Shown piece by piece: positions 1 to 52,800 of a stretch of DNA of 59,298 nt. The DNA is taken from positions 1 through 59,298 of IMG/VR virus record IMGVR_UViG_3300009508_000017; one strand, 5' to 3'. A program made the translations under genes and the position numbers. The DNA comes from a virus (lineage: Duplodnaviria; Caudoviricetes). The notes under the pieces are model-generated. The model did not search any database and was not told where the DNA came from. It was given only the letters and a program-made list of their open reading frames with translations. Position 1 is the stretch's first letter. Each line of letters begins with the position of its first letter.

Positions 1-41
1 CATTCCATATCTATGTAACGCTCTAAGTATTTCTAGAACGT

Positions 42-446
42 TCATTTAACCGGATTGACGATAGTTGTACCGTCTGCTCTTTTGACGGCTTTTCCGTTTT
101 TCTTATGCACAGCGAACTTTACTGTTTTTGCTGTTTTGAAGTAATCTCCAATTGCGACGACTAAGGCTTTAACCTTAGCTTCGAGATTCCTGCTATTAGC
201 AGCAACCGCTGCTCTTGCTTCTCCAACTTCTTTAGGAAGTATCCCTAAAGAGCTTGCGAATATAATCGGTCCGATTGCATTCTCACCTGCATAGACGAGA
301 TGCTCGGCACCTTTCTCATTAACGAGCGCACATGCGTGATGTTTCCCTGCTGAATGAATCATTCTGTTGGTCTTCATCTTATGATTACCTCCTGTTTGAA
401 GTGTGGGTGCATTTGACCCACTGCTAGTTTTCTTTCCGAATGCCAT
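42..446 (-). CDS. Hypothetical protein (134 aa, basic)
   Basis: ATG start with AAGGA upstream; same orientation as the early genes; no motif recognised. Confidence 0.75.
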   Translation of the reverse strand: MAFGKKTSSGSNAPTLQTGGNHKMKTNRMIHSAGKHHACALVNEKGAEHLVYAGENAIGPIIFASSLGILPKEVGEARAAVAANSRNLEAKVKALVVAIGDYFKTAKTVKFAVHKKNGKAVKRADGTTIVNPVK

Positions 447-2314: not shown

Positions 2315-2792
2315 AAGTAATTCCCAGGTCTTGTGGTGTCCAATTCTTAGATAACTTACTTCTTAGTAGAACGTTTGACTCTCTTAGGTTAATGAATTCT
2401 TCAAAGCTAAGGTATGAGTTGCTGTTCTGTTCTTCTTTATCTAGTCGCTTTTCATGAGGATTTAATTCCTTCATGTGATGCACGATGTTACTTACTCCAT
2501 TGGTATATAGAGCACTTAACTTGTTGTCTACGGCAGGCACTATTTTGTATAGTATATCTGCTAATACAACGTCCTGTATTTTGAACTTGCTTGCTAGTCC
2601 TGGTTGTTGCTTGAGTCTACTTGAGAAGACCGCTGCTTTTTCCATCTTCTCTGCTTTTTTAGCAATGAAGCTGGCTTCGTTTAAAGATTCGTACGTACCT
2701 ATTAACCGTTCACCTGTATAGGTTTTGGTTTTTGGGTCATACATGGACAGTCTTATAACTGAATGTTTAGTTGTTTGTATTATTGATATCAT
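2298..2792 (-). CDS. Hypothetical protein (164 aa)
   Basis: Overlap-coupled ORF in the early operon. Confidence 0.7.
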   Translation of the reverse strand: MISIIQTTKHSVIRLSMYDPKTKTYTGERLIGTYESLNEASFIAKKAEKMEKAAVFSSRLKQQPGLASKFKIQDVVLADILYKIVPAVDNKLSALYTNGVSNIVHHMKELNPHEKRLDKEEQNSNSYLSFEEFINLRESNVLLRSKLSKNWTPQDLGITYEETE

Positions 2793-3162
2793 CTTTTAGT
2801 TCATCGAGGGTTTTACTTAGTTTTTCTGCGTATTCTTCTTTTAGTTCTATAGCTTTATTACTTATGCTATTTTCTGATTTGTATCCTTTGTTATCCATGA
2901 CACAGTCTGCTAGTAGCAGGACTATGTCTGATAGTTCTCTTAACAGGACTACGTCTGCTGCATCAGCGGCTTCATCTACGTCAAGCCCCTGATCCATAAG
3001 CCTGGCCATGTCATTGAAACATTTTCTTTTTAATGTCTCGCTGACCATTGCTGCTGCGAATATTTCTGGATGCTTACAGTCGCTTACCTTGTCATAGGCA
3101 AGTTCTATAACTTGTTTTATTGCATCTTCTTTGTCTTCTGAATCTTCTTTTATGTATACCAT
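2767..3162 (-). CDS. Hypothetical acidic helical protein (131 aa)
   Basis: Coupled ORF (TAATG junction at 3162). Confidence 0.7.
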   Translation of the reverse strand: MVYIKEDSEDKEDAIKQVIELAYDKVSDCKHPEIFAAAMVSETLKRKCFNDMARLMDQGLDVDEAADAADVVLLRELSDIVLLLADCVMDNKGYKSENSISNKAIELKEEYAEKLSKTLDELKDDINNTNN

Positions 3163-3413
3163 TAGGCTGCTCTCCTTATATTTTGATTGTTATATTTCTT
3201 TCGTGCTGTGAATATTTTGCTCCACTCGTTTGCTATGTTTTTTACATAGACCACACCACCTACGCGTCTTGCGCATTGCTTGGCCCATTGTAATCCTTCT
3301 GCACTTTTCATGTATGCAACTTCATAGCCGCCTCTGATTATTGTTCCGTCGCTTAGTCTTTTTGCGTGTTTCTTTGAGGGATCTACGCCTTCCCTGAATA
3401 CGAAGTATGACAT
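3162..3413 (-). CDS. Hypothetical protein (83 aa)
   Basis: ATG preceded by AAAGGA; first gene after the conserved leader at 3444-3526. Confidence 0.7.
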   Translation of the reverse strand: MSYFVFREGVDPSKKHAKRLSDGTIIRGGYEVAYMKSAEGLQWAKQCARRVGGVVYVKNIANEWSKIFTARKKYNNQNIRRAA

Positions 3414-3443
3414 CGTTTTTCCTTTGGTTTATTGTTTCTGTTG

Positions 3444-3526
3444 TTTAATGAATTAAATAAGTATAATTCAAAAAATATATATAAAATTTACATACACTGT
3501 TCTAGTTTGTTATACGTGATGATAGT
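3444..3526 (-). promoter_or_regulatory. Conserved early promoter/leader element, copy B
   Basis: Minus-strand ACTATCATCAC box followed by an AT-rich block that aligns by eye with 9562-9641. Confidence 0.6.
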
Positions 3527-3560
3527 GGCCGGGGCAATGCGCTTGGGCACTACCCCGACC
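3527..3560 (-). other. GC-rich RNA hairpin downstream of rIIA, without a U-tract
   Basis: GGTCGGGGTAGTGC-CCAAGC-GCATTGCCCCGGCC; 14-bp stem with G-U pairs that favour the minus-strand transcript. Confidence 0.65.
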
Positions 3561-3569
3561 GAGCTTTAG

Positions 3570-36860: not shown

Positions 36861-36875
36861 CGGTTGTATTATTTT
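36861..36875 (-). promoter_or_regulatory. Late-promoter box AAAATAATACAACCG, copy 2
   Basis: 15 bp identical to 38365-38379; upstream of the scaffold/capsid genes. Confidence 0.65.
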
Positions 36876-37146
36876 AACACTTCCACCTGGCTCTAGCGGC
36901 TTTGCCTCTCTCACCGTTCCAGCTCTTAGATCTAGCGCAAAATGCTTTACGTCGTTTTGCTGCTTTTCCACCTTTTTTGACTTTACCTGTAACGGCAGTC
37001 TTGAGTTTAGATCCAGGGTTGGCTTTGCGATACGCAGCCACTCCCTTCTTCGTCATGCCGGCTCCAGCCTTAGCGGTGCGGTAGTTAGCTCCCTTACCTT
37101 TAGTGGTTTTAGGGATCCGTTTACTGGGCTTCCTTTTAGTAGCCAC
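36874..37146 (-). CDS. Small basic phage protein (DUF6321-like)
   Basis: GMTKKGVAAYRKANPGSKLK...RRKAFCAR...RWKC. Confidence 0.75.
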   Translation of the reverse strand: MATKRKPSKRIPKTTKGKGANYRTAKAGAGMTKKGVAAYRKANPGSKLKTAVTGKVKKGGKAAKRRKAFCARSKSWNGERGKAARARWKC

Positions 37147-37282
37147 CTTTTTTGCCGGTCACTTGACCTGGTTTTTTGGGCTTCCCGCTAGAAGCTTTCT
37201 CGGAAATACACTTACCGATCTTTTGACATGTTTTTGGGTTAATACATTTACCCCCTGGTGCTGAACATCCTTTTTTACTCAT
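37136..37282 (-). CDS. Small basic Cys-rich protein (48 aa; not in ORF track)
   Basis: MSKKGCSAPGGKCINPKTCQKIGKCISEKASSGKPKKPGQVTGKKGGY, ATGA-coupled. Confidence 0.65.
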   Translation of the reverse strand: MSKKGCSAPGGKCINPKTCQKIGKCISEKASSGKPKKPGQVTGKKGGY

Positions 37283-37533
37283 TTTAAGTTATTGCTGCGG
37301 ACTGTTATGATTAATTCGTCCAATTTTTTAAATATTTCTGAAAGATTTGCATCAATGCGTTTTACATTAGAATACAATTCCTGATTTTCTTGTCCCTGTT
37401 TAGCCATATCGACTCTAAGATTATCAATCTTGACTTCATTGTCTCGGATTCTTCCGGTCATATATTTCATTATAAATCCGAATAGACCGAGAACTATACC
37501 AAGTAAGATATCAACTATGTCGTATGCACTCAT
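37279..37533 (-). CDS. Single-TM coiled-coil protein (possible lysis accessory)
   Basis: N-terminal hydrophobic helix followed by heptads. Confidence 0.6.
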   Translation of the reverse strand: MSAYDIVDILLGIVLGLFGFIMKYMTGRIRDNEVKIDNLRVDMAKQGQENQELYSNVKRIDANLSEIFKKLDELIITVRSNNLK

Positions 37534-37940
37534 TTTCCGGCTGCTTGTCCAAAGTAAAAAGAAGATACTGCTAAAAATACGGTTCTGTTTTCTTTAACTA
37601 ATAAGTACCCGTCTACTTGATGGTAAGAAATCTTATCCTTACCTCCAATAAGACCAAAAAGCCATTCTCTTGACTGTTCGTTAATTTCAACGAAAGTCGG
37701 TACAGAAAAGAAAGAAGCCAAGAAGGGAAATCCTATGACCGCTAGAACTACGCTTATAACAATAAAACGTCGTACTACGACACCCCCTCGCGAGGCAGCT
37801 TTGTCAGCACTTTCGTCTGACGCTTTTTGAGCACTTATCGCTCGCTTTAGGGCTTCGTCCTTAGCCTTGCGACTTTCGGCCATAAATCTAAAGACAAAGC
37901 CCAAAGCAGACGAGGCCCCCATTACTAGGAGATCCGTCAT
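37530..37940 (-). CDS. Holin-like membrane protein
   Basis: Two or three hydrophobic segments; C-terminal SFYFG. Confidence 0.55.
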   Translation of the reverse strand: MTDLLVMGASSALGFVFRFMAESRKAKDEALKRAISAQKASDESADKAASRGGVVVRRFIVISVVLAVIGFPFLASFFSVPTFVEINEQSREWLFGLIGGKDKISYHQVDGYLLVKENRTVFLAVSSFYFGQAAGK

Positions 37941-37950
37941 GCGATTAAAA

Positions 37951-38304
37951 TCAGGTAATTGTTATTGCGCCAGCAGCGGAAGTCGTTGCAGATTTTCCGA
38001 TACCGTTTTCTGCCTCTACTCCGTAGATATAAGTTCCAGCGTTAGATTCTTCGTACTGAACAGTAAAAGAATTCGTTGTAGAAGGATCGGCAGTTGGAGC
38101 TGCTCCAACGAAAGCTGCGGATGCGGTTGAGTCTACTACTCCAGAAGCGATGTCCCAAATAGAGTTAGTAGTGTTCCAAGTAACTGTAGCAACTGCTTCG
38201 GTGGCAGCGGCACTTGTTACTGCTGCTCCGTCTGCGGAACGATAAATTGTGAAAAGATCCTCGTTGTCCGAGTTGTCTGTAAATGCGATTTGTACTGTAG
38301 CCAT
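37951..38304 (-). CDS. Stand-alone fibronectin type III domain lacking strand A (117 aa)
   Basis: Starts at strand B (TVQIAFTDNSDNEDLFTIYRSADG); strand F TYIYGVEAENGIGKS; in-frame TAA five codons upstream of the ATG. Confidence 0.8.
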   Translation of the reverse strand: MATVQIAFTDNSDNEDLFTIYRSADGAAVTSAAATEAVATVTWNTTNSIWDIASGVVDSTASAAFVGAAPTADPSTTNSFTVQYEESNAGTYIYGVEAENGIGKSATTSAAGAITIT

Positions 38305-38364
38305 GATAAAATAAGGTTAATGGTTAAGACTATAAAATAACACCTAATGCCCTCTTTTGAGGAT

Positions 38365-38379
38365 CGGTTGTATTATTTT
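38365..38379 (-). promoter_or_regulatory. Late-promoter box AAAATAATACAACCG, copy 1
   Basis: Identical to 36861-36875; upstream of the Fn3 gene. Confidence 0.65.
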
Positions 38380-41300
38380 TAAAAGAAAGTTTTTATCGTC
38401 ACATCCGAAAGCCTAGAGCCTATATAGTATAACGAGGTGTCTATAATTAGATCTGAACCATTTGTAGGATTACTGGCAGTATGAAAAGTTACATAATCTT
38501 CAACTTCTTCTATTACTTCATAAAAGTAACCCCTAGGAATAGCTGTTGACAGGTAAGAGCTTGCAGCTGAATTTTCTTTCCTTAGCAGAGGCTGTCCTGA
38601 TCCTGAAATTCCCTCGACAAGAGCGTAGTTTCCCTGAACATAATACACTCCTGCACCGGTTGAGAAAGAGTTTTTGATAAGCACCTTTTGACCAATGGTC
38701 AAAGCATCATTTGGCTGTTCCACGTCAACGGGTTGTTTCTTTTGATACTGGATTTGATTGCTTGCGGAATAATGTCTAATTCTAAGCCAATCACCTGCGG
38801 TCAAATAGTGTGCACCCGTGCTAGGAAATCCAGGAGCATTAACTGATCCGTTACCATTTACTGAAAGCCAATATGGTTGAAAATTTCCAAAATCTACGTC
38901 TTTGTAAGTAAGTCCTACCTCAAGGGACTTCCCAAGAACTACCTGGAACTGAGTATACCCGTCTCTGTTACCTGACATTGTTTGAGCTGAAGAAGCTCCA
39001 GTATTGTAACCATTAGGGCCAGCAGTTTTCTCAATACCTCCTCCTGGGTAAGTGGTGACGACACCAGCGGCTTTTACTCCTTCAAAGAAAGAAACAGAGT
39101 TTATTGTTCTACCATTAAAGCAGAGGACTTTTAAACCGTAAATAAGAGTTCCAGAAGGCACTTCAACGCTTGCAGTATTTATGCATGTACAGTTCTGAGT
39201 ATTGTTTGTTCCAGTAGAACCTGTCCAGGGCAATGTAATCGAATTTCCAGTCGAAGTAAGAGCAGCTACTTGAAGTATTCCAACATCTGCATAAGGTCTT
39301 TCGAACACTACGGTGTAAGTTCCTGCTCCTACTGGAGATGAAAACATTTGCTTGATAACTATATCTGTATTATAGCCTGTTAAAAACCCTGAATAGAGCC
39401 CTACAGTGTCTGCGGCTCCGGTTACCTTAGTCCAACCTACTGGGGCTTCAAAAGGTGAAGTACTCGGAGGAGTAGCGTATTCCCATTTTGTCCCACGATC
39501 AGACATATTTACCCATTCCCAATTTCCTGTGTTTTGATTGCTTGACCAATAGGGATAATCCCGTGGGTCATTTGGGTCTTCCATCCTTTGAAGTGCTCCA
39601 CCCCCTCCGCCTCCGACTCCATGTAAAACAGTGCCAACAGGAAATACGATGCTTGGGTCACCTAAAGCAAATGGATCCAAGACAATTATGTTCACAGGAG
39701 CATCCCCTGCTCCACCATTTGTCCCATCGTTTTGAGGGTCTGCCACGATTTGCTGGACAGCATCAAGTGTTCCGTTTACTAACAGCTCTGAGCCCTCTCT
39801 AATATATTCCTTGTTTTGCCATCTTACTGGTTCGTCGTAAATAAAATCGGCTGTGGGTGGGAAAGTTGCATATGGAAATGCTCCTACTCTTATTGGAGTT
39901 CTGGGTGCATTTGGAGTGAGAAGACCAGTGATAGTAGTGTTGACTGCGGCAACTGCATTTGGGGCAGTATTTATAATAGGTATTTGAGGCGCGTTTGGAT
40001 CGTAAGATACAGTAGGTACCAATGTCTGGTTCGGTCCTACGAACAATCCAATTACTGGTGCTTGAGGCGCAACTGGTGTTGCTAATACTACTGGCACTTG
40101 AGGAGCGGTAGGTCTTGCGGACACTCCAATCACAGGTGCTTGAGGCGCACTTGGTGATTTTGTTATATAGAATATAGAGTTGAGTGTTGGTGCTGCTGGG
40201 TTTGAAACAGAAGTTACTGAAGAAACCTGGCCAGGTCCATGAGCTACGAGCACCTGGTCTACTGCACCTGGTTTTCCTCCAACTGTGATTGTCTGAGGAG
40301 TGTTTGGAGAGTTCTGTACCGTAGGAACCAGTGTTTGGTTTGGCACTCCCACTACAGAAACTGTCTGAGGAGTGTTTGGAGTGTGAGATACCACAGGAAT
40401 TTGTGGAGCTGAGGCACTTTCCCCAGAAGTCACTATTTGCGGTGCTGAAGGTGATTTCTGTATAACAAGCAAACCCTTTAAGGTTGCTGCATTTGGAGAA
40501 TGTTCGACAGTTACAAGAGCTGGCATTCCCACAGTTACTACCGAAGTCAAGAACTGAGGAGCGTTTGGTGCGAACAACATTAGTTGCGTACTTACAACTG
40601 CTGGAGCTCCTGGATTTGTTTCTATTACCTGAGGAGCGTTAGGAGAAACTGTAATAACAGGTGTAGTAACAGCGACTGGTTTGCTTATTGCGGTTACAAT
40701 CGCTGGAGCTTCTGGTATGTGGTCTACAGATATTATAGAGATACTGTTCGGAGCTGTAGAAAGAACAGGAACTTGAGGAGCCACAGGTCTTGCTCCAGCT
40801 GTTACAACTTGAGGCGCATTCGGGTTGTGAGAAATGACCGGAATTCCTGGTCTTGAAAGGAGTTTTATTGTTGTTACGATACCTACAGGTTGAGGTATAG
40901 TAGAAACTGTTATTGGAGCTACCTGATTTGGAGCGGTTACTATAGAAGCTACAGGAATCTGTACTGCAACAGGAGGGGTGTGTATTATTCGATCTATAAC
41001 AGGAGCGTTTGGATCGCTTACTATTACAGGTATCGTAGTCTGATCTGGAGACTTGGAAAGAGTTACGGTAGAGACTCTGCCTGGAGAATGTTCGGATGTA
41101 ACTAATTGAGCTGCATTCGGGTCGTGCTCTATGGTTACAGATACAACTCCGTTTGGTTCTGATGCAATACCTACAAATGCAGGAGCCAATGGGGGTCTTG
41201 TAATTCCTCGGTATAGACTGTAATCAGAAGCTAAAGGAGTGTTTGCAAACTCAACGTATTCCCATGTAGATCCCCTGTCACTAAGTTCAAATATTTGAGC

Positions 41301-42068
41301 AGTTTCAGTTCCACCTATTAAGCCGTCATCTGTTTGTAAAAGATCAAACGGACCTCCTGTGGAAGAAAGGTATTTCTGAATTTTAACGATTTCGTTCTCG
41401 TATCCGAGAGGATAGTCTGGTTCGTTTGGTGAGTTCGCAAATCCAAAAGGTACGAGAATTGAGATGTAATCTGTTTGCACAGAGGAGTATCTCCAAAGTC
41501 CGATATGAGGAGCATTGTTTTCGTAAGCTTCTGCCTGAGTAATTGTGACTGCGTTTGGATCGCTTTGAACCGTAATGCTTGCAGGCATAAGAACATTGTT
41601 TCCAGAACTGACAACAAGAGGTTTGTTGGGCTGGTGTTCGACAGTAATAGCAGGTGCATTTGGACTTTGAACCACTGTTGTAACAGCGGGAGCTTTTGGG
41701 TCTTGCCCAACGACCACTACCCCAGGAGCAATGGGATCTGTTATAACACCAATGGGCTTTGGTTGACCAGGAGTGTTATTAATAACAGGTGCTAGTGTTG
41801 CATTTGGATCTACTGAAATGGTAACAGCAGCTGCATTTGGACTAAATTGAATTGCAGGAACGAGAGGCTGATTAGGCTGAAAATTTACAAGGACTCCATA
41901 TTTTAAAGGAGGTCCTGGAAGAAAAGGCCCAGCATATCTGGGAGGAGCTCCAAGAGGATCTACTTTACCAAAAGGTTTTACCCTATCGGAAAGACCAGCT
42001 AGCTCATCCCCGTAGGGTAATATTCGATCTACCAGACCGTCTACTTTATCTTCCAAGGGTGCAATCAT
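38379..42068 (-). CDS. Fibre/scaffold protein (1229 aa) with about 45 Pro-rich 12-aa repeats and C-terminal globular domains
   Basis: Repeat blocks at 41526-41876 (10 units) and 39885-41192 (35 units). Confidence 0.8.
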   Translation of the reverse strand: MIAPLEDKVDGLVDRILPYGDELAGLSDRVKPFGKVDPLGAPPRYAGPFLPGPPLKYGVLVNFQPNQPLVPAIQFSPNAAAVTISVDPNATLAPVINNTPGQPKPIGVITDPIAPGVVVVGQDPKAPAVTTVVQSPNAPAITVEHQPNKPLVVSSGNNVLMPASITVQSDPNAVTITQAEAYENNAPHIGLWRYSSVQTDYISILVPFGFANSPNEPDYPLGYENEIVKIQKYLSSTGGPFDLLQTDDGLIGGTETAQIFELSDRGSTWEYVEFANTPLASDYSLYRGITRPPLAPAFVGIASEPNGVVSVTIEHDPNAAQLVTSEHSPGRVSTVTLSKSPDQTTIPVIVSDPNAPVIDRIIHTPPVAVQIPVASIVTAPNQVAPITVSTIPQPVGIVTTIKLLSRPGIPVISHNPNAPQVVTAGARPVAPQVPVLSTAPNSISIISVDHIPEAPAIVTAISKPVAVTTPVITVSPNAPQVIETNPGAPAVVSTQLMLFAPNAPQFLTSVVTVGMPALVTVEHSPNAATLKGLLVIQKSPSAPQIVTSGESASAPQIPVVSHTPNTPQTVSVVGVPNQTLVPTVQNSPNTPQTITVGGKPGAVDQVLVAHGPGQVSSVTSVSNPAAPTLNSIFYITKSPSAPQAPVIGVSARPTAPQVPVVLATPVAPQAPVIGLFVGPNQTLVPTVSYDPNAPQIPIINTAPNAVAAVNTTITGLLTPNAPRTPIRVGAFPYATFPPTADFIYDEPVRWQNKEYIREGSELLVNGTLDAVQQIVADPQNDGTNGGAGDAPVNIIVLDPFALGDPSIVFPVGTVLHGVGGGGGGALQRMEDPNDPRDYPYWSSNQNTGNWEWVNMSDRGTKWEYATPPSTSPFEAPVGWTKVTGAADTVGLYSGFLTGYNTDIVIKQMFSSPVGAGTYTVVFERPYADVGILQVAALTSTGNSITLPWTGSTGTNNTQNCTCINTASVEVPSGTLIYGLKVLCFNGRTINSVSFFEGVKAAGVVTTYPGGGIEKTAGPNGYNTGASSAQTMSGNRDGYTQFQVVLGKSLEVGLTYKDVDFGNFQPYWLSVNGNGSVNAPGFPSTGAHYLTAGDWLRIRHYSASNQIQYQKKQPVDVEQPNDALTIGQKVLIKNSFSTGAGVYYVQGNYALVEGISGSGQPLLRKENSAASSYLSTAIPRGYFYEVIEEVEDYVTFHTASNPTNGSDLIIDTSLYYIGSRLSDVTIKTFF

Positions 42069-42334
42069 CTAAACATGTCAGGGTGGCGTGCTTTAGTTTT
42101 TTTAGCAGCCCTAGACAAGTTTGCCTCAGCAATCTTTGTAGGAGACATTAAATCAAGAGCGTTAAGCACTGCTTTTAAATTAAGAGTTTCTTGGTCAGAA
42201 GTGTCTGCTTTTAACATTTTAGTTAAATATCTTTCCTTTTCTTTCTGGAAAGCTCTTTCAATAATCTGAAAGGACTCACTATTAATGAGCCTTTTCATAT
42301 CAGAAAGATTGTCATATATTATAATGTCGCTCAT
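42065..42334 (-). CDS. Small helical protein of the kind often found after podovirus portal genes
   Basis: 89 aa; DMKRLINSESFQII pattern; coupled to its neighbours. Confidence 0.65.
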   Translation of the reverse strand: MSDIIIYDNLSDMKRLINSESFQIIERAFQKEKERYLTKMLKADTSDQETLNLKAVLNALDLMSPTKIAEANLSRAAKKTKARHPDMFR

Positions 42335-45300
42335 TAAAATGCGTGTGATGTGGTTGGTAGTCTGTACCAGGAGTTGTCGCTAGCACTGAAAGTAATTACT
42401 ACCCCGTCTCGTTTTACAAAAACAGTACCCGAATCGTCTACAAATTCGATTTTACTGTCTCCATAATCTACTCCACTTACGGAATCGACTCCAGAAGGTA
42501 TTGCTGCAGAAATTTCAGTTAAAGTCGGGTCGGTAGCTAAAGGATTTCCAAAAGATCCTGCTGATCTCCAATTGCTGTACAGATCACAAGGAGCTTGAGG
42601 GAAGTTGATAACACCTACAGTTCCGTCAACATACAATATTCCAATAGTAGTAACATATCCGTTTTGATCGGAGGCTGTCGGTACAGAAGTGTTGTCTGCG
42701 TAATCATGGACACTTTTTCCTGAGTTGTGGTCTGTGCCTATGCGGAAACATTTCTTAATTGGTACAGCAGTGTCTATGGAGTCACCAACACCTGCTCCGG
42801 TAAAATGTATTCCCCAATAGAGAGGTCTAATGACAGACTTTTCTATAAAGGCTCCTCCTGAATCCAGTTCGTCATACCAAGTCATTATAGGATGCCATAC
42901 GAACCTAAAATTCATGGGTCCGAAGACTCCTGGATTCAGTTTACCACTATAGTCGATAGTGGTCGCACCTCCTGTAGAACCTGTGTAGCCTCCTGCAAGA
43001 ATTGGAGTAGGATTTCGAAGATTTCCTCCTGGGGCCCAGGCAGTCCAATGGTTCCTGCCCATGAAATAGAGTTTTTTGTCTGACTTGTAGAAAAGATTAA
43101 ACTCATGACCACAATAGAAGGTGTGCATTCCTGAGATGGCATCATTAGTAAGTACCTGGAATGACGAGCTGCTTCTTGGGGAAGAGAGGTAAGTGTGGTA
43201 ATTAGAGCCTGTACCAGATCCAACACTTCCAAAACCTGAACTGGTGCTTGATCCGTGAAGGTTCGTACCTTCTTGAAAAAGCATACTGCCTCCAGAGAGT
43301 GCAAAATACTGTTTATCCCAGCCTATCGTGTTATCGGAAGGCTTTCCCCCGTCTATTAATTTTAATGGAGAGGTTGTATCCCAATCGACTCCTTGTGCGC
43401 CCAGACCGGTCGTTCCGCCCGCAGATCCCGCCACATCTTGTAAGCAGTTGTAATGACCTATGAACCAAAGGTCGGTTTTCAGTCCTGTGTTTCCGTGACT
43501 AACAATGAAAATACCCTGTTGTTTTGCAGTACCTCCTTTATCTTCATGTGAAGTTACTTGTATTATACCGTTATATGCAGTTGGCATAGAAGTGTTGTCG
43601 ATATAGTTTGAAGTATCTACCCAAAATGCTTTCAAGGAACTGTAGTTAGGGTCATCTGGAGTATTAGAAGCTGAAGTTGCGTTTAATACTAGATCTCTAC
43701 TGAGTAGAGAATTAGAAGAGGTTTTTGGAGCTGTTGAAAATATTTTATTCTTATAAATTTCCCAATGATTTTCAGAACTAAATCCTGGAGAAACTCCGTA
43801 AACTACGTCATTAGTTTCATGTCCAGCAAAAGCTCTTTTAATCGGAGTTGCTCCACCGAATATGTATGGTTCGGTATCTGAATGTTGATACGAATTACCA
43901 GGGTCGGTCACGGAATGATCAGAAATAGTTTTATTAGTCAGTGTTGCTCTTATTTTTGCACCGCTACCAGTGTTTTGTTCTGAAATTAAAATAGCTGGAA
44001 GGTATTCATACTCTGCTCCTGCCACATCTACCTGGATGTCGTTTTTAGACAATCCTCCAGCTGCGGCAGTGGCGAAAGGACTTGCTGTCTTGGTGCTGGA
44101 CATTTCGGCAACTGTAACTGCAGTGGTGTTTTCAACTGGAGGGCCTGAAAGGCTAGAGTTGTTTGGAGCTATGTCTGCATTATCTCCAACCCCGTCACCA
44201 TCGGTGTCAGCTGATTCGGAAGCATCCAGTGGAAAGGCATCGGCAGTATCAAGTACGCCGTCGTTGTCATCGTCGGTGTCGAACTCATCGTCTATGCCGT
44301 CTCCGTCGGTGTCAGTCCCAGATGCTCGATTTGGATCGAGTGGGAAACTGTCGTTTGTGTCAAGTACTCCATCACCGTCGTCGTCAGTGTCTGAAACATT
44401 GAATGTACCGTCGTTATCTGTATCCAGTCTGACCAATAGTGTGAAATTCTGACCATGTATGTAATCGCCAGTAGCGTCGTTTATAGCTTTAACGGATATA
44501 TAGTAAAGACCTTCAAACTTAGCAAAGGGATCATCAGGAAAAGTAAAAGAAGTAGTGGTTGTGTCGAATTTATCTGAGAACAAGGTAGAGCCCCAACTGC
44601 CAGGATTACTGGTATAGTTAGATGCATTACCACCGTCTCCATAACATCGAACTAAGACTTCGTATCGATCTGCACCTCCTACAGGGTCCCAGGAGAATAC
44701 AGTACCCACAGGGTTGTGTGCTTCTGCATCTAAACTGGTGTCTGCTGGAGTTAGTCCAGTACTTGGTATTGAATAGTTGCCTGGCGGGTCTGCAACTGCA
44801 TCCGTCAATTTGTAAACAGCTAAAGGTAAGTTGTTATCTAGCCAATTGTTGGGGATCGACCAGGTTCCAGAAGAACTGTTTAACATGCCTGAAACTGATT
44901 TATCTTTCCATGCAAAGATTCCGCCTGCTCTAAAATTGTCACCAGACCTGGAAAGGTAGGCTTCTTTAGGTTGATAAACATTACTATACCAGTTATTCGG
45001 GTCTGTAAATGAAATGAAATATAATGCCGACCCACCACCTGAACTTGTTTGAAGATAGCCTGATTTATATCTTCCCGCTACAATTCCTTCAGGGAACCCA
45101 ATATCTGTATATAATGGAGCAGATCCGTAATTAGTTCCATCGTCGTTCGTAGCTGTAAAAGTGTGAGTTCCTGCAGGCATATTAGTGTTGCTATCCCAGC
45201 CACTACCGCCAACCGTTAACGTAAATGAAGTGATTTGATTGTTCGAGTCCTTAGTGTAAACAGGATTTAAAAGGTTCTGAAGAGTTGTGGTTTGATGGTC

Positions 45301-47775
45301 TTGATAAAAAAGGACACTGTAGGGATCTGAGGTATCAATCGAGTATTCAAACAATTCTTGCTGGTGAGAACTCCATGTCCAGTTGGGGTTTTCATCCAAA
45401 TCTGCGCTGATGATTGGAAACCTGTCTGAATCTATAACCATTCTTTGGGTTGGGACTAGAGAGCTGTCATTTACGATTTTTTGTTTAAATATCTGCTGTA
45501 GTTGATCTCCAAAATAATAAGCAGTTAGGTCGTAACTGGTTCCAAGTTCTGTATTTAAATCATCAGTGTAGTCGTCTCTGTTACCTCCAGCGTTTCCTGC
45601 GGATGAGTAATCTGATGAAACGGTATAAGAAACGACTCCAGCCTCGGATAGAGTAACTGTGGTTTCAGTAAATCCTAAGATATCCTGTGGTTGGCCTTCG
45701 TAGTATGCTTTATATGCATAATTCCAATTGTAAAAATTAGGAAGCGCCTGAGCGTTTGGTGCAAGCGGGAATCCTGAAGGTTGGAGACTTCCTCCGAAAG
45801 TAATGTCTGTAGAATCGTAATAGTAAGTTACTCCATCTATTACTAAACTTTGAACATTGTTTAGAGCAGTTGAGGCTTGATATAAAGGGTAGTAATAACC
45901 TACTCCGTTTGTTCCGTCATTACCATATACCATAAAAGGCTGGTTCATTAATTGGTTTGTGACAGTGCTTGGAGCTTCTGGATCTTTCCCTACAGTCGTA
46001 GAAGTGATCGAATTCGGATCGTGTTGGACGGTAAAGTTATTAACGACTCCAGGATCTGCCCCTACGGTTGGTGTAGAAACTGCACTTGGATCGTGGGCTA
46101 CAGCTAAAGTGCTTATTGCATTCGGGCTGTGGCTTACGCTAGGAATTGAAACTGCAACGGGGAGGTCTTTTTTACCTCCTATTAAAATGTATCCTGGAGG
46201 CAGTGTGATCGTACTTCCAGGGATTGCCACCGTTTCGTCACCAGTAAGCGGATTCCAAACGACGTAAATATCGTCAGTTGATACGCTTCCAGGAACTACA
46301 ACAGTTTGCGAGGTTGAAGAGTTGTTCTGTATAACAGTTAAGTCGTTGTCTCCAACTGAAAGAAGTATGTCGTCGGGTTCACCGTTACCACTAGCTCCAC
46401 CTATTATTATAGTTCCTGTAGGATAGAGGTTAAGTGTTCCTCCAATTTGGAACCCTCCACCTGTTTGTATTTTAGGAACACCTGTTATAATGAATCCTCC
46501 TGGAGGTATCGTGATCGTTGTTCCAGGAGCTATGATAGTAGTAAGCCCTGTCGCAGGATCGTAAAGCCCTGAAACCAGAGGCATTCCGGGTACGGAGGTA
46601 GCAGGAACTGTATGTTCTTGGCCAGTGCCTGCTGGGTTTTTAGTGATGTCTATATCCGCACCACTCCCACCATCACTAAATCCTGCGAGATCATCAAGGA
46701 ATGTTTTCAGTTCTCCTGTGATTGGTATTGTGCTACCTCCTACGGTGATTCCAGTTCCATTATCTAAAAGAGTTTCTGATCCACCTTGAAGTTCTAGATC
46801 GTCCGAGATCCCATCTCCGTCTGTGTCGGATAAAGTAGTTCCCACATTTGAATCAAGGGGATCTAAATCGTCTCCATCTAAAATTCCATCGTTGTCATCA
46901 TCAGGATCGCCTGAATCAATAATTCCATCACCGTCTGTGTCTGGCTCTGTGTCGTTTCCGGGATAGTCAGCATCTATGATGTTCGGTATTCCGTCTCCGT
47001 CTATATCGTCATTGTTGGTGTTTACATAGTTCACTCCTTGAGGAGATCCAGTTCTGTCAAGGGTGTTCCAGTTTGCAATAACTCCTCCCTGGCCTTGAGG
47101 CCCAGTATCTCCCTGATATTGATATACGGGAAGCCCGTTTATGAGTAAATTGCCATTCCCGTCTGAGCTGACAGTTGCGGTCATAGGAGGCACTGCGTTT
47201 ATCGTGCCTTGAACTTTAACCAGTGGCCACCCACTTCCACCATAGTTAGGTGGCTGTCCTGCAACGTCTCCACCAAAAGTGTAAACAGTTCTTGGCTCTT
47301 CTGTGCCGGTTCCGCCAGCCAAAGTAACAACTATGAAAGTGTTTCCGAGGGCGTCTGTTATAGTAGAAACTATAGTGTTTTTAACAAAGTTAGGATCTTG
47401 AGAGTCCATGACACCATTACCTGTAGAATCTTGATCGGAATCTACTGGGCTGGGCGAGCTTTGAGGAACAAGTTCATTACTAGGTATTAAGAAAGATCCA
47501 GGAGAGCCAGCAGCAATAGAGGTTGTGGTGTTGATAACAAACCTAGTTTTTCCGTCTTGGCCTACTTCAACTACTGCTATTCTTTTATTTCCTTCTGGGA
47601 CTGAAGGCACTGCCCAAGAAGCCGTATTTCCTTTACCTGGAGGGGTAAGCCTGTTGGTAGGTGTGGTGACTCCGTAAACCAGAGTAGATCCGAGATCTAG
47701 AAGATAGACTAAATACTCAGAAGAATCTACGTCTTCTGAGAGTTGTAACCAAGAAACTTTTATATGCTGTGCCAC
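42334..47775 (-). CDS. Large multidomain adhesin-like virion protein (1813 aa)
   Basis: N-terminal Fn3-like domain, Lipoprotein_15-like segment, two clusters of TSP3-type DxDxDG Ca-binding repeats, six 12-aa Pro repeats, an internal Fn3 (FSWDPVGGADRYEV...YYISVKAIN) and an RCC1-like blade. Confidence 0.75.
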   Translation of the reverse strand: MAQHIKVSWLQLSEDVDSSEYLVYLLDLGSTLVYGVTTPTNRLTPPGKGNTASWAVPSVPEGNKRIAVVEVGQDGKTRFVINTTTSIAAGSPGSFLIPSNELVPQSSPSPVDSDQDSTGNGVMDSQDPNFVKNTIVSTITDALGNTFIVVTLAGGTGTEEPRTVYTFGGDVAGQPPNYGGSGWPLVKVQGTINAVPPMTATVSSDGNGNLLINGLPVYQYQGDTGPQGQGGVIANWNTLDRTGSPQGVNYVNTNNDDIDGDGIPNIIDADYPGNDTEPDTDGDGIIDSGDPDDDNDGILDGDDLDPLDSNVGTTLSDTDGDGISDDLELQGGSETLLDNGTGITVGGSTIPITGELKTFLDDLAGFSDGGSGADIDITKNPAGTGQEHTVPATSVPGMPLVSGLYDPATGLTTIIAPGTTITIPPGGFIITGVPKIQTGGGFQIGGTLNLYPTGTIIIGGASGNGEPDDILLSVGDNDLTVIQNNSSTSQTVVVPGSVSTDDIYVVWNPLTGDETVAIPGSTITLPPGYILIGGKKDLPVAVSIPSVSHSPNAISTLAVAHDPSAVSTPTVGADPGVVNNFTVQHDPNSITSTTVGKDPEAPSTVTNQLMNQPFMVYGNDGTNGVGYYYPLYQASTALNNVQSLVIDGVTYYYDSTDITFGGSLQPSGFPLAPNAQALPNFYNWNYAYKAYYEGQPQDILGFTETTVTLSEAGVVSYTVSSDYSSAGNAGGNRDDYTDDLNTELGTSYDLTAYYFGDQLQQIFKQKIVNDSSLVPTQRMVIDSDRFPIISADLDENPNWTWSSHQQELFEYSIDTSDPYSVLFYQDHQTTTLQNLLNPVYTKDSNNQITSFTLTVGGSGWDSNTNMPAGTHTFTATNDDGTNYGSAPLYTDIGFPEGIVAGRYKSGYLQTSSGGGSALYFISFTDPNNWYSNVYQPKEAYLSRSGDNFRAGGIFAWKDKSVSGMLNSSSGTWSIPNNWLDNNLPLAVYKLTDAVADPPGNYSIPSTGLTPADTSLDAEAHNPVGTVFSWDPVGGADRYEVLVRCYGDGGNASNYTSNPGSWGSTLFSDKFDTTTTSFTFPDDPFAKFEGLYYISVKAINDATGDYIHGQNFTLLVRLDTDNDGTFNVSDTDDDGDGVLDTNDSFPLDPNRASGTDTDGDGIDDEFDTDDDNDGVLDTADAFPLDASESADTDGDGVGDNADIAPNNSSLSGPPVENTTAVTVAEMSSTKTASPFATAAAGGLSKNDIQVDVAGAEYEYLPAILISEQNTGSGAKIRATLTNKTISDHSVTDPGNSYQHSDTEPYIFGGATPIKRAFAGHETNDVVYGVSPGFSSENHWEIYKNKIFSTAPKTSSNSLLSRDLVLNATSASNTPDDPNYSSLKAFWVDTSNYIDNTSMPTAYNGIIQVTSHEDKGGTAKQQGIFIVSHGNTGLKTDLWFIGHYNCLQDVAGSAGGTTGLGAQGVDWDTTSPLKLIDGGKPSDNTIGWDKQYFALSGGSMLFQEGTNLHGSSTSSGFGSVGSGTGSNYHTYLSSPRSSSSFQVLTNDAISGMHTFYCGHEFNLFYKSDKKLYFMGRNHWTAWAPGGNLRNPTPILAGGYTGSTGGATTIDYSGKLNPGVFGPMNFRFVWHPIMTWYDELDSGGAFIEKSVIRPLYWGIHFTGAGVGDSIDTAVPIKKCFRIGTDHNSGKSVHDYADNTSVPTASDQNGYVTTIGILYVDGTVGVINFPQAPCDLYSNWRSAGSFGNPLATDPTLTEISAAIPSGVDSVSGVDYGDSKIEFVDDSGTVFVKRDGVVITFSASDNSWYRLPTTSHAF

Positions 47776-47778
47776 TTT

Positions 47779-49821
47779 TTATACCCTTTGTTGAAATTGA
47801 TTTTGACCTTGAGGATTGCTGTTACCCATACCTTGAACTTGAGCATCTACTCCGTTTTTGGCTTCAGGAACTTGCCCTCCACCTGAGCTTTCACCCGATC
47901 CACCTTGAGCGTCAGCCATAAGCTTGGCTTGTTCTGCTTGTTGTTGTGGATCTGCTGGAGCTTCCTGAGGCAATAGTTCGTCTGAATTTTCGAATCCCAT
48001 AGCATCTAGTATGCGTTTTAACATAGGTCTGACAAACGGTCGTATTTCCGGAGGGTAGTTAAAAAAGCGTTCTTGTACTTGAAGTGCTAGGTTTGCTTTT
48101 TCTATAGCCCTCTGCCCTTGGTCCTGAGATAAAACGACTATGGCATTAATTTCTAGCTTTCTTGCCATTTCTGGAGTCATTGTTGCAAGGGCGGAAACCT
48201 CTCCTTCCATGTATTCAAACACTTCTTCCTGATCCATCGTGGCTATCGAAAGTTTGACCATCTTGGTTAGGTGGTTTTCTAAACCCTTGACTATACGTCT
48301 CATCCAACGTCTTCCTATTTTGGAAGCTTCGTTGAGAGTCGCTTCGACACCTGTAGCCGTGTTGGCCGGAGCAAGAGCTTGATAATCGCCTTGCGCAAGA
48401 TTACTGACACCCAGCCAGAGCTGAACCATACCAAATACAAAATCAATAAGCTCTTGTGTCTTAGCGTCTGCGGCTGGTATCTGAGCAAACTCAATAAAAT
48501 CTGCAAGCTGATTTTGTTCTTTAAGTTGGAATATTTTTCCCGCATGTATCTCAATATCATCTGGCTCATCCTCTACTGCTTGGGGATGTACCGCTATAAT
48601 AGGGTTAGCTGACATCTCGTTTCTATAGGATTCGCTGTTGAATTGACGGTCTATATACTCCTGATAAATGTTTATTTTTTCAGGTAAACTTGGACCCCAC
48701 CAGTTATTTTTAGCTTTTCCGATAGCAACAGCTGTAAAAGGTATTCTATTGTCTGGAGTTACTTTAGCTACATATTCGTAAAAAATTGCAGTCTTTGACT
48801 CTGGCTCAATAAAAAGGCAGAAATCTTGAGGCACTCCTGTTCCAAGGACATCTCTTTTTATCCAACATTCAACCACTTGAATCTTTGGATTTTTTAAATT
48901 GTCAAAACTAAGGTCTTCTTTGTAATTTTCGTTAGCTTCAGACTTAGTTCTACCATTAGCATCTTTTTTAATAATTGCTAAGAATTTTTCGAAATCAAAC
49001 CACCCTCTTTCAAGGAACATTTCTTGAGCCCAACCCGTGTCTTTGTCATACAATTCGGCAATAAAATCAGCATCCTCGATGTCTTCAACATTTGAAGGTG
49101 CTAAAAACCTATCGCTGTCAATAATCCTAGATCTTGGGCCAGAGTATTTAACTTCTCTTGCAGGAACGCCTTGTGGGAAGTCTTCAAAAGTATGAACATT
49201 AGGGTCTAAGAAAAAAGAAGGGTCATCTACTAAAGATAAAGTAGGAGTTCCGTCAGGTCCCATAGCTTGTTGAAACTGTGCGTTTCCTTCAACTACTGGG
49301 CCCATTCCAGGTAACATCTCGAAGTCTCCGTCTGCATTATTAAATAACGCTTTTTTATCAAAGTCTAGCCATTCAGAAACGACTTCTTCATATGTGACTT
49401 TAAGAATAGCTGCCCTTTGAATAAAAAGATGCATATAGCATTCCTCTAGACGCTCTCTCGTCTTGGCCATCTTCTCCAACTTCCAATGGAAGTACTTGTC
49501 AAACATATCAGCCATTCCTTGGTCTTGAGCTCCCTGAGGAACAAACTTAAAATAAGGAGACGTTCCAGTTATTTCGTCTTCTGCCCTAGCTAAGAAATGG
49601 TCTACTACTAAACTAGTTAAAGGTATCGGAACATTAGAACGATCGTAAATAGAATCATTATTTGCTCTGTCATTCCTTTCATTGTTGTAAACATTCCATG
49701 CACCCTTATCTACATCGATTCGCTCTTTGTTGTCTGTCTTGAGCTGTTCTATTCTGTCGCATGCATATTCAACAAGTTCTTTTTCCTGTTCTTCGTTTAG
49801 TATAAAATTAGTTGATTTCAT
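47779..49821 (-). CDS. Portal protein
   Basis: 680 aa; IQVVECW, IPF...WWGPSLPE and TATGV motifs plus a Q-rich tail typical of podovirus portals. Confidence 0.85.
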   Translation of the reverse strand: MKSTNFILNEEQEKELVEYACDRIEQLKTDNKERIDVDKGAWNVYNNERNDRANNDSIYDRSNVPIPLTSLVVDHFLARAEDEITGTSPYFKFVPQGAQDQGMADMFDKYFHWKLEKMAKTRERLEECYMHLFIQRAAILKVTYEEVVSEWLDFDKKALFNNADGDFEMLPGMGPVVEGNAQFQQAMGPDGTPTLSLVDDPSFFLDPNVHTFEDFPQGVPAREVKYSGPRSRIIDSDRFLAPSNVEDIEDADFIAELYDKDTGWAQEMFLERGWFDFEKFLAIIKKDANGRTKSEANENYKEDLSFDNLKNPKIQVVECWIKRDVLGTGVPQDFCLFIEPESKTAIFYEYVAKVTPDNRIPFTAVAIGKAKNNWWGPSLPEKINIYQEYIDRQFNSESYRNEMSANPIIAVHPQAVEDEPDDIEIHAGKIFQLKEQNQLADFIEFAQIPAADAKTQELIDFVFGMVQLWLGVSNLAQGDYQALAPANTATGVEATLNEASKIGRRWMRRIVKGLENHLTKMVKLSIATMDQEEVFEYMEGEVSALATMTPEMARKLEINAIVVLSQDQGQRAIEKANLALQVQERFFNYPPEIRPFVRPMLKRILDAMGFENSDELLPQEAPADPQQQAEQAKLMADAQGGSGESSGGGQVPEAKNGVDAQVQGMGNSNPQGQNQFQQRV

Positions 49822-52800
49822 TATAGTGCGATTCCCATATCTCTTGCCATGCCGATAGAGCGACGTTGTATATTATCACGCATATCCTCGAGTTTATCCA
49901 TCTGTTGTATTATGCGTTCGTCCTTTTGGTCTTGTTTTTCAAGAGCTTCTCTTCTCCTTCTGTACATCTTCATTGCATTTTCACTAGCTTCAAAAGCTTT
50001 AATTATCTTTAAGTAGTGCGAGTTAGATTTTAAGAATTGCGCCTTGTCTGCAGGATCCATGGAATCTAGAGATGACTTTGCTTGTTGGGCTCTGGTTTTT
50101 AGCGAGTTGTATTCGTTGTATGTTTTAAAAGAAGAGCCTCTCATCTTAACTATACCTTTTACTACAGGAAGCTGCATTTCTTGAGGATCATCAGTAAACA
50201 TGTTTAATGTACTCATGAACCCTGTGGCTAAAGAGCCTCCGAGGAAATCAGTCCACCATTGAAGTCCTGATCCACTCCAGCCTCCTCCGAGAGTAAGGGA
50301 TTCTGTTCCAACATATTTAAGAGGATCAGAAAAAGTCATCATTGAAAGTAAGTTTCCAGGGACTACGTTGTTGCCTCCGGCCGCAGAGTTGATTCCATCA
50401 GATATATTTTTATAAATCTGTGGAGTGTTCCTCTTAGATAGAATTGAGGGGGATGCAGTTTCAGATCCAGAGAATTCTTTGTATACAGTGTTTCCATTCC
50501 ACTGCTCATTCATTCCAATTTGGAACAGCCCTTGAAGCGCTGGAACGGGGACAGATTCAGACAGACTGGTTGGTGCATATGGAGAATAGGTCTGAGACAT
50601 AACTTTTACGAACTGTAGAGAATCTTTTACAATGTCTCTACCTCCAGTCATTAATTGCTTTGAAAGGAAGTCGCCCATAGCCCAAAGCCCATGAGGTCCA
50701 TAGCCTATGGGTACTGTTGTATGTCCAGGAGTTTTGTCATCACTGAACAGTGAGTGGGGCACGACAACACTAGTATATCTTGCGTGCTCGGAGACGTCGT
50801 CAAAATACGTGCTTTTATCGTCTTCTTCGTCATCGTCTCTACCTGTAAGAGCTCTCATCAACAAATTGTATGCAAGGCTGTATCTAATAACTTTTCCTCC
50901 AAGTACAAGAGATGACTGTAAGCCTCTCTTTTTAAGAGACTTTGCAAACACTCTATTACCTTGCACACTTGGGTTGAAGAACTGGATAAGTACTCCTAGT
51001 TGCTGAGACCAAGTACCTCTTTTATTAAAGTCTACGGTTACGTTTCTGGATGCAGGGATGAGTGTTTTTATGTCTATCCCCTCCTGAAGACCGTGCATAA
51101 TAACCCTAGCACGTAAAACATTTTCCAAAGAGGTGTTAAGGTTGTCCACAAAGGAAGTCATAACACGAATTGGTTTTACTATTTTGCCTCCCTTTCTTGG
51201 TGTTTTAGAAGCTTTTTCGTTTTGCTTCAGTAGTTCTCTTATTTCATTAAATTTATAAAAAGCAGTCTTTCCGCCCAGCTTTTTGAGAACGTGATAAGCG
51301 GCTCCCATATCTGATTTAGCTAATTGGAAAAGCGAATCATTATCCATCTCCGCATAGCCGTTTGGAGCCTTACCGTATTCGTCTAAAGATTTCTCATAAG
51401 CAAAAATATCTCCAGCATGTTTGTGGAAGTTTATTGGGTTAGCTACCTTGTTTTTTATAACCTTAAGCTCTGAATCTGAATCAAGATTAAACCAGGCATT
51501 GGTTACATCACGAAGCGGGTTCCTTAACCAAAACTCGGGACTGTAGGAAGTTCTTATCTTAGAAAGATATTTTGTAGATATGTTAACCGTTGAAAGGACT
51601 TGACCTAGCTGTTCGTAAGTCATGTTTTTAGCAGAAGAGGCAAGTAGATTCCCCTGTTCTGTGTCTGCAAACATAATGACTTTTGGCCTTCCGTCTTCTC
51701 TTACAAATAGAGCACGTCCAGAATCTAAAACCTCAGCAGAAAACTTCATCTCCTGTATGTCGAAGAGGGTTTCCCCATCGCTGTTCTCTATAAGTTTTGA
51801 GGTCATTTTTATTCCCTCTTTCGGTTCTCTGAAAAGAACATCGTAGAGCTTTCCAGCTGCGGAATCTTTGTTCTCAATTTTTGCATTAAGAAGTTCTGTA
51901 TGCACTTGATTAATTGCTTGTGCTGACTTTGCTCGTGTAGACCTAATGACAGCATCTTGATACCCTTGAGTAGTGTGAGCAAAGATAGTAAGTGGATCAG
52001 CCAGCATTGACCTACCTGTAGCGCTTTTTTGATAAACAGCTCCGTGTGGCATGTCAAAACCACGACCTTTTGCATCACCTGATCCAAGTAAGTCGTGCTG
52101 TTCTTCTTGCCTCGCATACTGATCTTCCATTCCCAAGAATCCTTGTAAGGGAAGTCTTCTAAAAGTTCCAAAATTAAGCCCCTCTATGGTGTGCAAGTCT
52201 TTGTCGTATCCTTTACTTGCTACAGTTGCGGCAGCTTCCATTCTTTCTTTAGATTTCTTGTCTAACATCTCAGCCTCGTACTGCAAATCCAGAGACTTTT
52301 TATGCATGTCAAACATCAGTTTTACTGGGTTGTTCCGATGTTTAATAAACTTTACCAAGTCTGGTTTTGTTTCAAGATCCTGAATTATCTTTTTAGCTTC
52401 CTTGTTGGACATTCCAGAGCCTGTGTCAGCTCCTTCGTCATCTACCAAAGCTTCTTTTCCTAGGTCTTGTCTGCTTTTTCTAATAGCTGCATTTGCTTGC
52501 GGTGCTACTAAAGCATACATGTAATAACCAATATCTTCCAACTCAGCTTTTGAGTCGTAAAGAGCGTCAGAGATAGGATTGATGTAAGCCCTTTGCCCTT
52601 CGTCCAGAAGGTCACCAGCAACGCCCATTTGAGAGTAGAAAGTGTCGTAAAGCCGAAGACGTTTTGCATCTTGTCCTTTTTTATCGTAACCAAGCTTTTC
52701 TATTATATGTTCTTGTGCTTGCATCCAAGGACCGAACTGTTCGACTAGTTTTCCATAAACACCTGTAAACTTTTTAGGACCTCTTTGCCCAATATTTATA

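Follow-up and report, generated by a model that had tools for sequence, protein, structure and literature searches.

How is a phage protein completed whose fold begins one β-strand too late? This question is raised by two adjacent genes of an uncultured marine phage, known from a 59.3-kb viral record (IMGVR_UViG_3300009508_000017; estimated completeness of 87%), the whole of which is referred to as the window. P0001 (positions 37951..38304, minus strand) is a stand-alone domain of 117 residues and of the immunoglobulin (Ig)/Fn3 type that starts at strand B and has no strand A/A′ in its predicted structure. The gene adjacent upstream encodes P0002 (38379..42068, minus strand), a fiber-like protein of 1229 residues with long arrays of a short, proline-anchored unit. 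The initial annotation of the window had proposed that each of these units completes one P0001 subunit in trans. As described below, the strand is missing, the array is periodic, and the pairing of such genes recurs in related loci; that the repeats of P0002 supply the missing strand of P0001 is on balance probable.

The Small Domain Starts at Strand B

The start of P0001 is fixed by its surroundings. An in-frame TAA is located five codons before the ATG (open frame of 121 aa), which makes an earlier start impossible, and an intergenic spacer of 74 nucleotides (nt) with a conserved box, AATAATACAACCG, separates the gene from that of P0002 (38305..38378, minus strand). All 19 homologues of P0001 are 100–124 aa long, and the 18 aligned family members share the invariant start M-A-T-V-Q with no N-terminal extension. 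A search of longer proteins revealed no fused form and gave a single weak match (E value of 3.4e-4, 27% coverage). The family profile matches canonical bacterial multi-Fn3 proteins; at E ≤ 1e-3, it retrieved 658 proteins among 1.84 billion representatives. The best 150 of these matches comprise 21 stand-alone proteins (100–136 aa, matched from residue 1–5), one protein of 413 aa with the domain at residues 1–103, and otherwise long multi-Fn3 proteins. In the ESM Atlas, only small proteins without names and Fn3 clusters were matched, which is a lead at most.

The structure of P0001 was predicted by AlphaFold2 with a predicted local distance difference test (pLDDT) score of 95 and a predicted template modeling (pTM) score of 0.88. 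Its β-strands span residues 2–10, 17–22, 37–44, 49–54, 78–86, 90–100, and 114–116. A structural search with VIA-align yielded V-type Ig domains with Z scores of 8.4–7.2 (a Z score near 8 can mean merely a common arrangement) and root mean square deviations of 2.7–3.6 Å, 83–101 residues being aligned over residues 1–117. With two sheets, a C′–C″ hairpin, and superposability on solved V domains, the model has the features of a V-type Ig sandwich. Residue 1 of the model is equivalent to residues 13–19 of the listed stand-alone V domains (e.g., 4y89_A, 15..109 of 109; 1tvd_B, 15..115 of 116). Because the alignments begin this far into the chains, P0001 is without a counterpart of the first strand(s). 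It does not form a seven-strand Fn3 domain with strand A included either, since the model starts at strand B and there is no coding room upstream.

The stop codon, the confident model, and the V-domain alignments hence bear out the initial annotation in that a 117-aa Fn3-type protein lacks strand A and has no longer start, and on the strength of the model, P0001 is confirmed as an Ig/Fn3-type sandwich without strand A/A′. The expectation that structure and profile comparisons would return Fn3 minus strand A holds in part: the V-type Ig alignments agree with it, whereas Foldseek gave weak nanobody matches only (best E value of 2.6e-3, TM scores of 0.5–0.6) and nothing at E ≤ 1e-3 against the PDB, and P0001 has no match to Pfam fn3 (PF00041) even at E values up to 10, thus staying below the gathering score. 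Neither Pfam nor PHROG holds a family for P0001 or P0002. Within the P0001 family, mean column identity is 0.94 in strand B and 0.90 in strand G, as compared with 0.57–0.88 in the other elements. These two most conserved elements are those that would flank a donated strand, which we count in favor of donation.

The Neighboring Protein Carries a Periodic Array

P0002 consists of a conserved N-terminal segment, two arrays separated by an insert, and a nonrepeat C-terminal region (all on the minus strand). Array block 1 (residues 65–180; 41529..41876) comprises 10 units and block 2 (residues 293–730; 39879..41192) about 35, most of them exactly 12 residues long; units of the type P-x-A-P-x-V/I-x-T are mixed with weaker ones in block 2. 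Between residues 58 and 730, 39 Pro–Pro pairs are spaced 12 residues apart, compared with 13.0 ± 3.2 in 2000 shuffles (largest value of 24). The roughly 45 units of about 12 aa that the initial annotation had read in blocks of 10 and 35 are therefore found as described. A tandem repeat is not visible in the DNA of the array; hence, the array is old and kept at the protein level.

Conservation follows the same period. Across eight homologues, the invariant prolines are 65, 77, 88, 100, 124, 136, and 147 in block 1 and 293, 305, 317, 341, 353, 416, 428, 440, 452, 476, 501, 525, 540, 588, 600, and 691 in block 2. The insert between the blocks (residues 181–292; 41193..41528) has many invariant columns, from G190 and W192 through Y286, R287, and G288; strands are predicted in it at a pLDDT of 23–39. 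The seven homologues outside the P0002 cluster (27–74% identical, 884–1657 aa) retain the N-terminal segment and the insert and, most of all, the 12-spaced prolines; they differ in their C termini. Residues 1–57 (41898..42068), a candidate virion anchor, are conserved at the start of P0028–P0033 and more loosely in P0034. Residues 731–1229 (38382..39878) are common to P0028 and P0029 only; other homologues end in a Laminin_G_3 domain (the protein of locus L053) or in an FGE-sulfatase-like region (L002 and L105). By analogy, a conserved N terminus with a variable C terminus is the usual layout of a fiber with a swappable tip, and the C-terminal region of P0002 is probably its distal or receptor-binding part.

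No repeat family was found by Pfam in nine array proteins. An AlphaFold2 monomer prediction of residues 1–760 of P0002 from an eight-row alignment stayed at a pLDDT of 29 throughout and is uninformative on self-folding. The motif [IL]-[FY]-[IV]-[YF]-x-G-[TS]-x-W stands at the end of many fiber proteins in these phages, small and large, whether or not they carry an array; examples are encoded at 2724–3236 of L063 and 3707–4222 of L017 and are also found at the C termini of P0030–P0033. This motif may be a trimerization or docking element that the proteins have in common.

Strand-Less Domains and Arrays Are Recurrently Paired

All four P0001-family genes with a readable upstream gene (4/4) follow a protein with such units. 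Besides the window, where the array gene is adjacent, these are L096 (adjacent array gene with about 9–10 units, 23 nt away), L105 (adjacent array gene with several short blocks in a protein of at least 1792 aa), and L053 (array gene with about 20 units, one gene away). In L002, L003, and L013, the upstream gene is cut by the contig end, which places these loci outside the count. L096 belongs to a phage record of 31 kb (97% complete) in which the capsid protein of the window has no detectable homologue. Patterns taken from the P0001 alignment were too narrow to find any locus among viral contigs; with a pattern of the conserved N terminus, three true loci were obtained among 10.

A second family was found around related capsid genes, of whose 139 loci 80 were kept. 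In distant relatives, proline-periodic fiber genes are followed by small open reading frames (ORFs) that the first profile had missed, and an iterated profile collects 24 of these with 77–119 aa and the start M-A-x-[IV]-x-[LV]-x-W. In two of these ORFs, a match to Pfam fn3 begins at residue 3 and at profile position 15 of 84; the scores of L049-87 and L043-96 are 23.6 and 20.5 bits, below the cutoff of 25. The family occupies a first position directly behind large tail-region fiber proteins, whose arrays have a period of 10–15 residues, and a second one in the portal–capsid region, after a homologue of the window's 89-aa gene and beside proteins of 148–347 aa with 14-residue units. The 89-aa gene (42065..42334, minus strand) marks the syntenic position of the module: it is 43% identical (E value of 3e-29) to the 96-aa gene of the relatives, and hence the pair of the window is the local form of the second position with reversed gene order. 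Small Fn3 proteins whose chain begins precisely at strand B thus fall into three groups, namely the P0001 family and the head- and tail-region forms of the second family. All three groups occur beside proteins whose arrays consist of P-x-x-P-x-x-hydrophobic units of 12–15 residues.

For counting, an array was defined strictly by P-x-x-hydrophobic anchors 10–16 residues apart, with at least five units, on the same strand and within 4 kb. By this measure, an array neighbor is present for 23 of the 30 small ORFs, in agreement with the co-occurrence expected from the initial annotation. The seven misses are the contig-end cuts in L002, L003, and L013, one ORF each in L040 and L055 (four and three units, respectively), and two ORFs in L082. 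Conversely, wherever an array is clear and its flanks can be read, a small Fn3 gene lies within two genes, except for the tail-fiber array of the complete genome G007. Candidates from a looser detector (L101-702, L025-250, and L092-663) were dropped, as they proved not to be arrays on reading; this detector also flagged portal, scaffold, and other proteins. The predicted variation in repeat number is likewise seen: two close homologues of 1028 and 1098 aa (88% identity) carry 19 and 23 GPxNL motifs, and the gap of 70 aa equals five 14-residue units, i.e., about whole units.

An H-E-x-x-H motif was seen by eye in a 641-aa protein of L082 (2190–4115), which starts with a strand-less Fn3 domain, and in an 873-aa array protein of L081 (7688–10309). 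The motif suggests zinc metalloprotease domains in both.

Units of Related Arrays Resemble Fn3 Strand A

The signature P-x-x-P-x-x-[LVIF] is common to all arrays. Seventeen canonical Fn3 domains of bacteria, present in loci that had been retrieved by chance, bear the same signature directly before strand B. A matrix built from these 17 A strands finds nine hits in the array of L049 (0.24 expected) and 12 in that of L055 (0.39 expected); the arrays of L043 give eight hits each, compared with 0.4 and 0.3 expected. A bacterial tandem Fn3 protein of 1126 aa in L007 unites both parts of the proposed pair in one chain: it has the B–C motif L-x-W-x-D-N-S-D-N-E of P0001 and the A-strand motif P-x-A-P-x-N-L of the units. 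Herein, strand A is provided in cis; in the phages, the units and the remainder of the domain reside in different genes, and the number of units is unrelated to the number of domains.

Proposed Assembly and Alternative Explanations

In the proposed assembly, P0002 and P0001 would form a two-component virion appendage. P0002 would be the string, with a probable N-terminal anchor to the particle, the two arrays, and a variable, probably host-binding distal region. Each occupied array unit would lie along the free edge of strand B (and G) of a P0001 copy, taking the place of the missing strand A. The P0001 copies would thereby coat the array as beads and stiffen it, and the number of units would set the length. 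Between about 20 beads (the strong P-x-x-P units) and all 45 may sit on one chain. A location on the head, a length of 150–200 nm, one subunit per repeat, and a high copy number of the subunit, all of them part of the initial annotation, would be further properties of such a fiber. The binding of P0001 to P0002, the role of the units as donated strand, the oligomeric state, and the virion location are what we infer from the genes and the model. A complex prediction of P0002 residues 413–499 with the P0001 alignment scored 0.00 in both runs, which, made without controls, speaks neither for nor against binding.

Several observations weigh against this assembly. The A-strand matrix gives only four hits in P0002 itself (0.70 ± 0.92 expected, shuffles reaching five) and none at a higher cutoff; this is too weak a result for us to claim a statistical A-strand likeness of the window's own units, of which just 20 pass the strict motif, the units being degenerate. 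With roughly half of the remaining arrays that were tested, the matrix stays at chance level, with no hits in L017 and L040. Twelve extended residues barely span one Ig-type domain, so that full occupancy would be sterically tight. The pairing has exceptions: L082 (record G009, 54 kb, 81% complete) contains two small strand-less Fn3 genes, besides the 641-aa protein headed by a strand-less Fn3 domain, and no array. In the complete genome G007, a 1028-aa tail-fiber array lies about 19 kb from the sole small Fn3 gene, and a homologous array, seen in part, is similarly placed about 19 kb from the single small Fn3 gene in the complete genome G006. A second small Fn3 gene had been predicted after the tail-fiber array in L030, L057, and L063; this prediction failed in two complete genomes. 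In these two genomes, both arrays carry a G-P-T-x-L core, and one Fn3 protein could thus serve both. Near-duplicate loci (L019/L020, L017/L032, L077/L079, and L080/L086) make the independent examples fewer than the rows counted. Finally, L084 encodes a 203-aa protein (2430–3041) with a collagen-like Gly-X-Y segment in place of the 14-residue array, which shares the C-terminal motif of its relatives (13/27 identical, E value of 2e-6). This homologue suggests trimeric fibers, and the arrays might fold on themselves.

The last point leads to the alternative that the arrays fold into a shaft of their own, probably with interdigitated β-strands in a trimer as in the shafts of other viral fibers, and that the small Fn3 protein is an accessory (an assembly factor, a cap, or an adhesin) that binds to one or a few sites, or to the insert or a terminus, and not to every unit. 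Collagen segments are trimeric and small genes after fiber genes often encode assembly factors, which, together with the many window units that lack the P-x-x-P signature and the isolated tail-fiber array of G007, gives this explanation some weight. It leaves unexplained, however, why, across the three groups of small Fn3 proteins, the partner always begins precisely with strand B and why units carry an A-strand signature; the lack of a confident self-fold in the AlphaFold2 prediction of residues 1–760 points weakly in the same direction, given the shallow alignment and the single chain. Overall, we consider an autonomous shaft possible, if rather doubtful. An ordinary decoration protein of the capsid or tail that sits on another virion protein, and is found near fiber genes through conserved gene order alone, is improbable: the pairing is retained when genomic position, gene order, or Fn3 family changes, and it is found in a phage record without a detectable homologue of the window's capsid protein. 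Synteny alone would not produce a pairing that persists across such changes, even if Ig-like decoration proteins are common in phages and the P0001 gene lies inside the head-gene block with an upstream box in common with the scaffold gene.

A mere annotation artifact, with strand A encoded upstream and joined by read-through or a frameshift, or with a small ORF that goes unexpressed, is very improbable. Programmed frameshifts sometimes append Ig-like domains to phage structural proteins; here, the 74-nt spacer with its conserved box and the in-frame stop lie between the genes, and each of the 30 small ORFs is listed, by a rule of the script, from the earliest start codon available behind a stop. 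Furthermore, four RNA-library runs of a single study yielded contigs that cover the P0001 gene at ≥99% identity, with the proviso that such libraries can hold DNA. With these alternatives weighed, the proposed completion of Fn3 subunits by repeats in trans gains strong comparative support from the pairing in three groups and at two positions and from the A-strand signature in relatives; it is held back by the weak match of the window's own units and by the exceptions to the pairing.

Beyond donation by P0002, it may tentatively be asked whether marine phages use a general plug-and-socket code, in which A-strand arrays would be scaffolds, comparable to cellulosomal scaffoldins, onto which strand-less Fn3 proteins plug. 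Free beads would then dock on the arrays as well as larger cargo with an N-terminal strand-less Fn3 domain; cargo candidates would be the 641-aa H-E-x-x-H protein of L082, the 413-aa protein from the profile search, and perhaps P0003, a large protein encoded near the pair. The number of units would set both the length and the valency of the appendage, matched Fn3/array pairs would give specificity, and the module would move between unrelated phages as a two-gene cassette. Such a code is possible at best.

Relation to Known Fiber Systems

Chaperone–usher pili (Pap/Fim), type V pili, and TasA fibers (cf. PMC9674648) resemble the proposed appendage in that a second polypeptide contributes the strand which an incomplete Ig-like sandwich lacks, and an extracellular fiber results. 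In pili, each subunit accepts and donates a strand, whereas the acceptor P0001 and the candidate donor arrays of P0002 are separate proteins. The missing strand is the C-terminal one (G) in pilins and the N-terminal one (A) in P0001. Assembly of pili is driven by a chaperone/usher or a protease, whereas here one chain would template many acceptors. P0001 is an incomplete Ig-like subunit without one strand, as in donor-strand systems; the donor strand is not an extension of a subunit of the same kind, the candidate donors being located in a different protein. Chaperone/usher families are absent from the Pfam and PHROG scans of 13 structural-block proteins (23800–49821), in which no search was aimed at them.

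In the tandem β-zipper of the bacterial fibronectin-binding proteins FnBPA and SfbI, a disordered repeat peptide adds a β-strand to each F1 module of fibronectin. These modules are complete, joined in one host protein, and augmented at their edge, in contrast to the proposed free and incomplete domains, which the same virus encodes as the peptide array. The triple β-spirals of adenovirus and reovirus and the triple β-helices of phages consist of repeats of 8–16 residues with Pro/Gly turns and alternating hydrophobic residues, placed between an anchor and a tip. Such trimeric shafts need no separate subunit, their repeats are unlike Fn3 A strands, and they are not known to be linked to genes of strand-less Ig domains. 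Ig-like decoration proteins of the T4 Hoc type place a small Ig-type domain on virions, possibly for weak adhesion; unlike P0001, they are complete domains with a dedicated capsid-binding part. We know of no strand-less Ig form that is paired with a peptide array, and a full-text literature search, judged by title and start of the abstract, listed no work on a phage fiber of such kind.

Genomic Context and the Conserved Box

The genes of the structural block are arranged on the minus strand in the order giant ORF, portal, P0003, 89-aa gene, P0002, P0001, two small membrane-type genes, probable scaffold, and major capsid. The portal gene was assigned by Pfam SU10_portal (E value of 1.1e-30) and the major capsid gene by phrog_334 (E value of 6.6e-21). 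The giant ORF (at least 3148 aa; 49821–59267, minus strand) lies directly upstream of the portal gene and reaches the window end; its counterpart in the related record G009 has 3859 aa. P0003 (1813 aa; 42334–47775, minus strand) contains six more 12-residue units (45946..46161, minus strand; read from the translation, with a periodicity count of 13). Two Asp-rich stretches of the D-x-D-G-D-G type (about residues 265–330 and 1075–1150) resemble calcium-binding thrombospondin-type-3 repeats. P0003 matched no Pfam family at significance, and a strand-less Fn3 domain at its N terminus is unsupported (profile E value of 14).

Downstream of P0001, small proteins with hydrophobic stretches are encoded (37279–37940, minus strand; coiled-coil/membrane character by eye). 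The 84-aa protein of the window has weak PHROG matches, spanin-like and lipoprotein. In L096, small proteins with hydrophobic stretches (3308–4102) likewise come after the strand-less Fn3 gene. A 90-aa ORF with an extremely Lys/Arg-rich product (36874–37146, minus strand) separates the membrane-type genes from the scaffold gene and may encode an internal or DNA-binding virion protein.

The box AATAATACAACCG occurs in exact form only at 38365–38377 and 36861–36873, i.e., ahead of the small gene and of the scaffold gene, and ATACAACCG is found at the same two positions in L002, L003, L013, and L105. The initial annotation had taken the box for a promoter: an identical copy before both genes and its conservation in relatives are confirmed, and a promoter function would fit this placement. 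It is probably a late-gene control element of the phage group. In the five loci in which the probable scaffold gene was read (L002, L013, L043, L053, and L105), ATACAACCG precedes it by about 45 nt; altogether, the box was observed in 15 of 106 loci, second copies of three contigs included (also L046 and L054). The RNA-library contigs cover both genes of the pair but cannot rank their expression. In one of these runs, word depth was 29–44 over 36874–37146 and 0.5–11 elsewhere, a depth that likewise cannot rank genes.

Neither P0001 nor P0002 has a match among GenBank phages, and the sole match of the capsid protein is a distant Paracoccus phage (27% identity over 24% of the length); hence, the collection holds no cultured relative. 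The closest relative, L105, is a 12.5-kb contig with a 78% identical capsid protein. This contig is filed in the bin of an uncultured archaeon, which could be a binning artifact or a host clue.

Implications

The capsid-gene group that carries the module comprises at least 139 viral contigs, and a templated fiber would explain why an unannotated two-gene module recurs. If the proposed assembly is true, it would be a construction of a virion appendage undescribed for any phage, in which one template chain orders tens of incomplete Ig-type domains and the repeat number encodes the length of the fiber. The peptide and the domain would, moreover, be a natural pair for protein engineering. Donor-strand complementation, described for the pili of bacteria and archaea, would thereby extend to viruses in a form that is heteromeric and templated.

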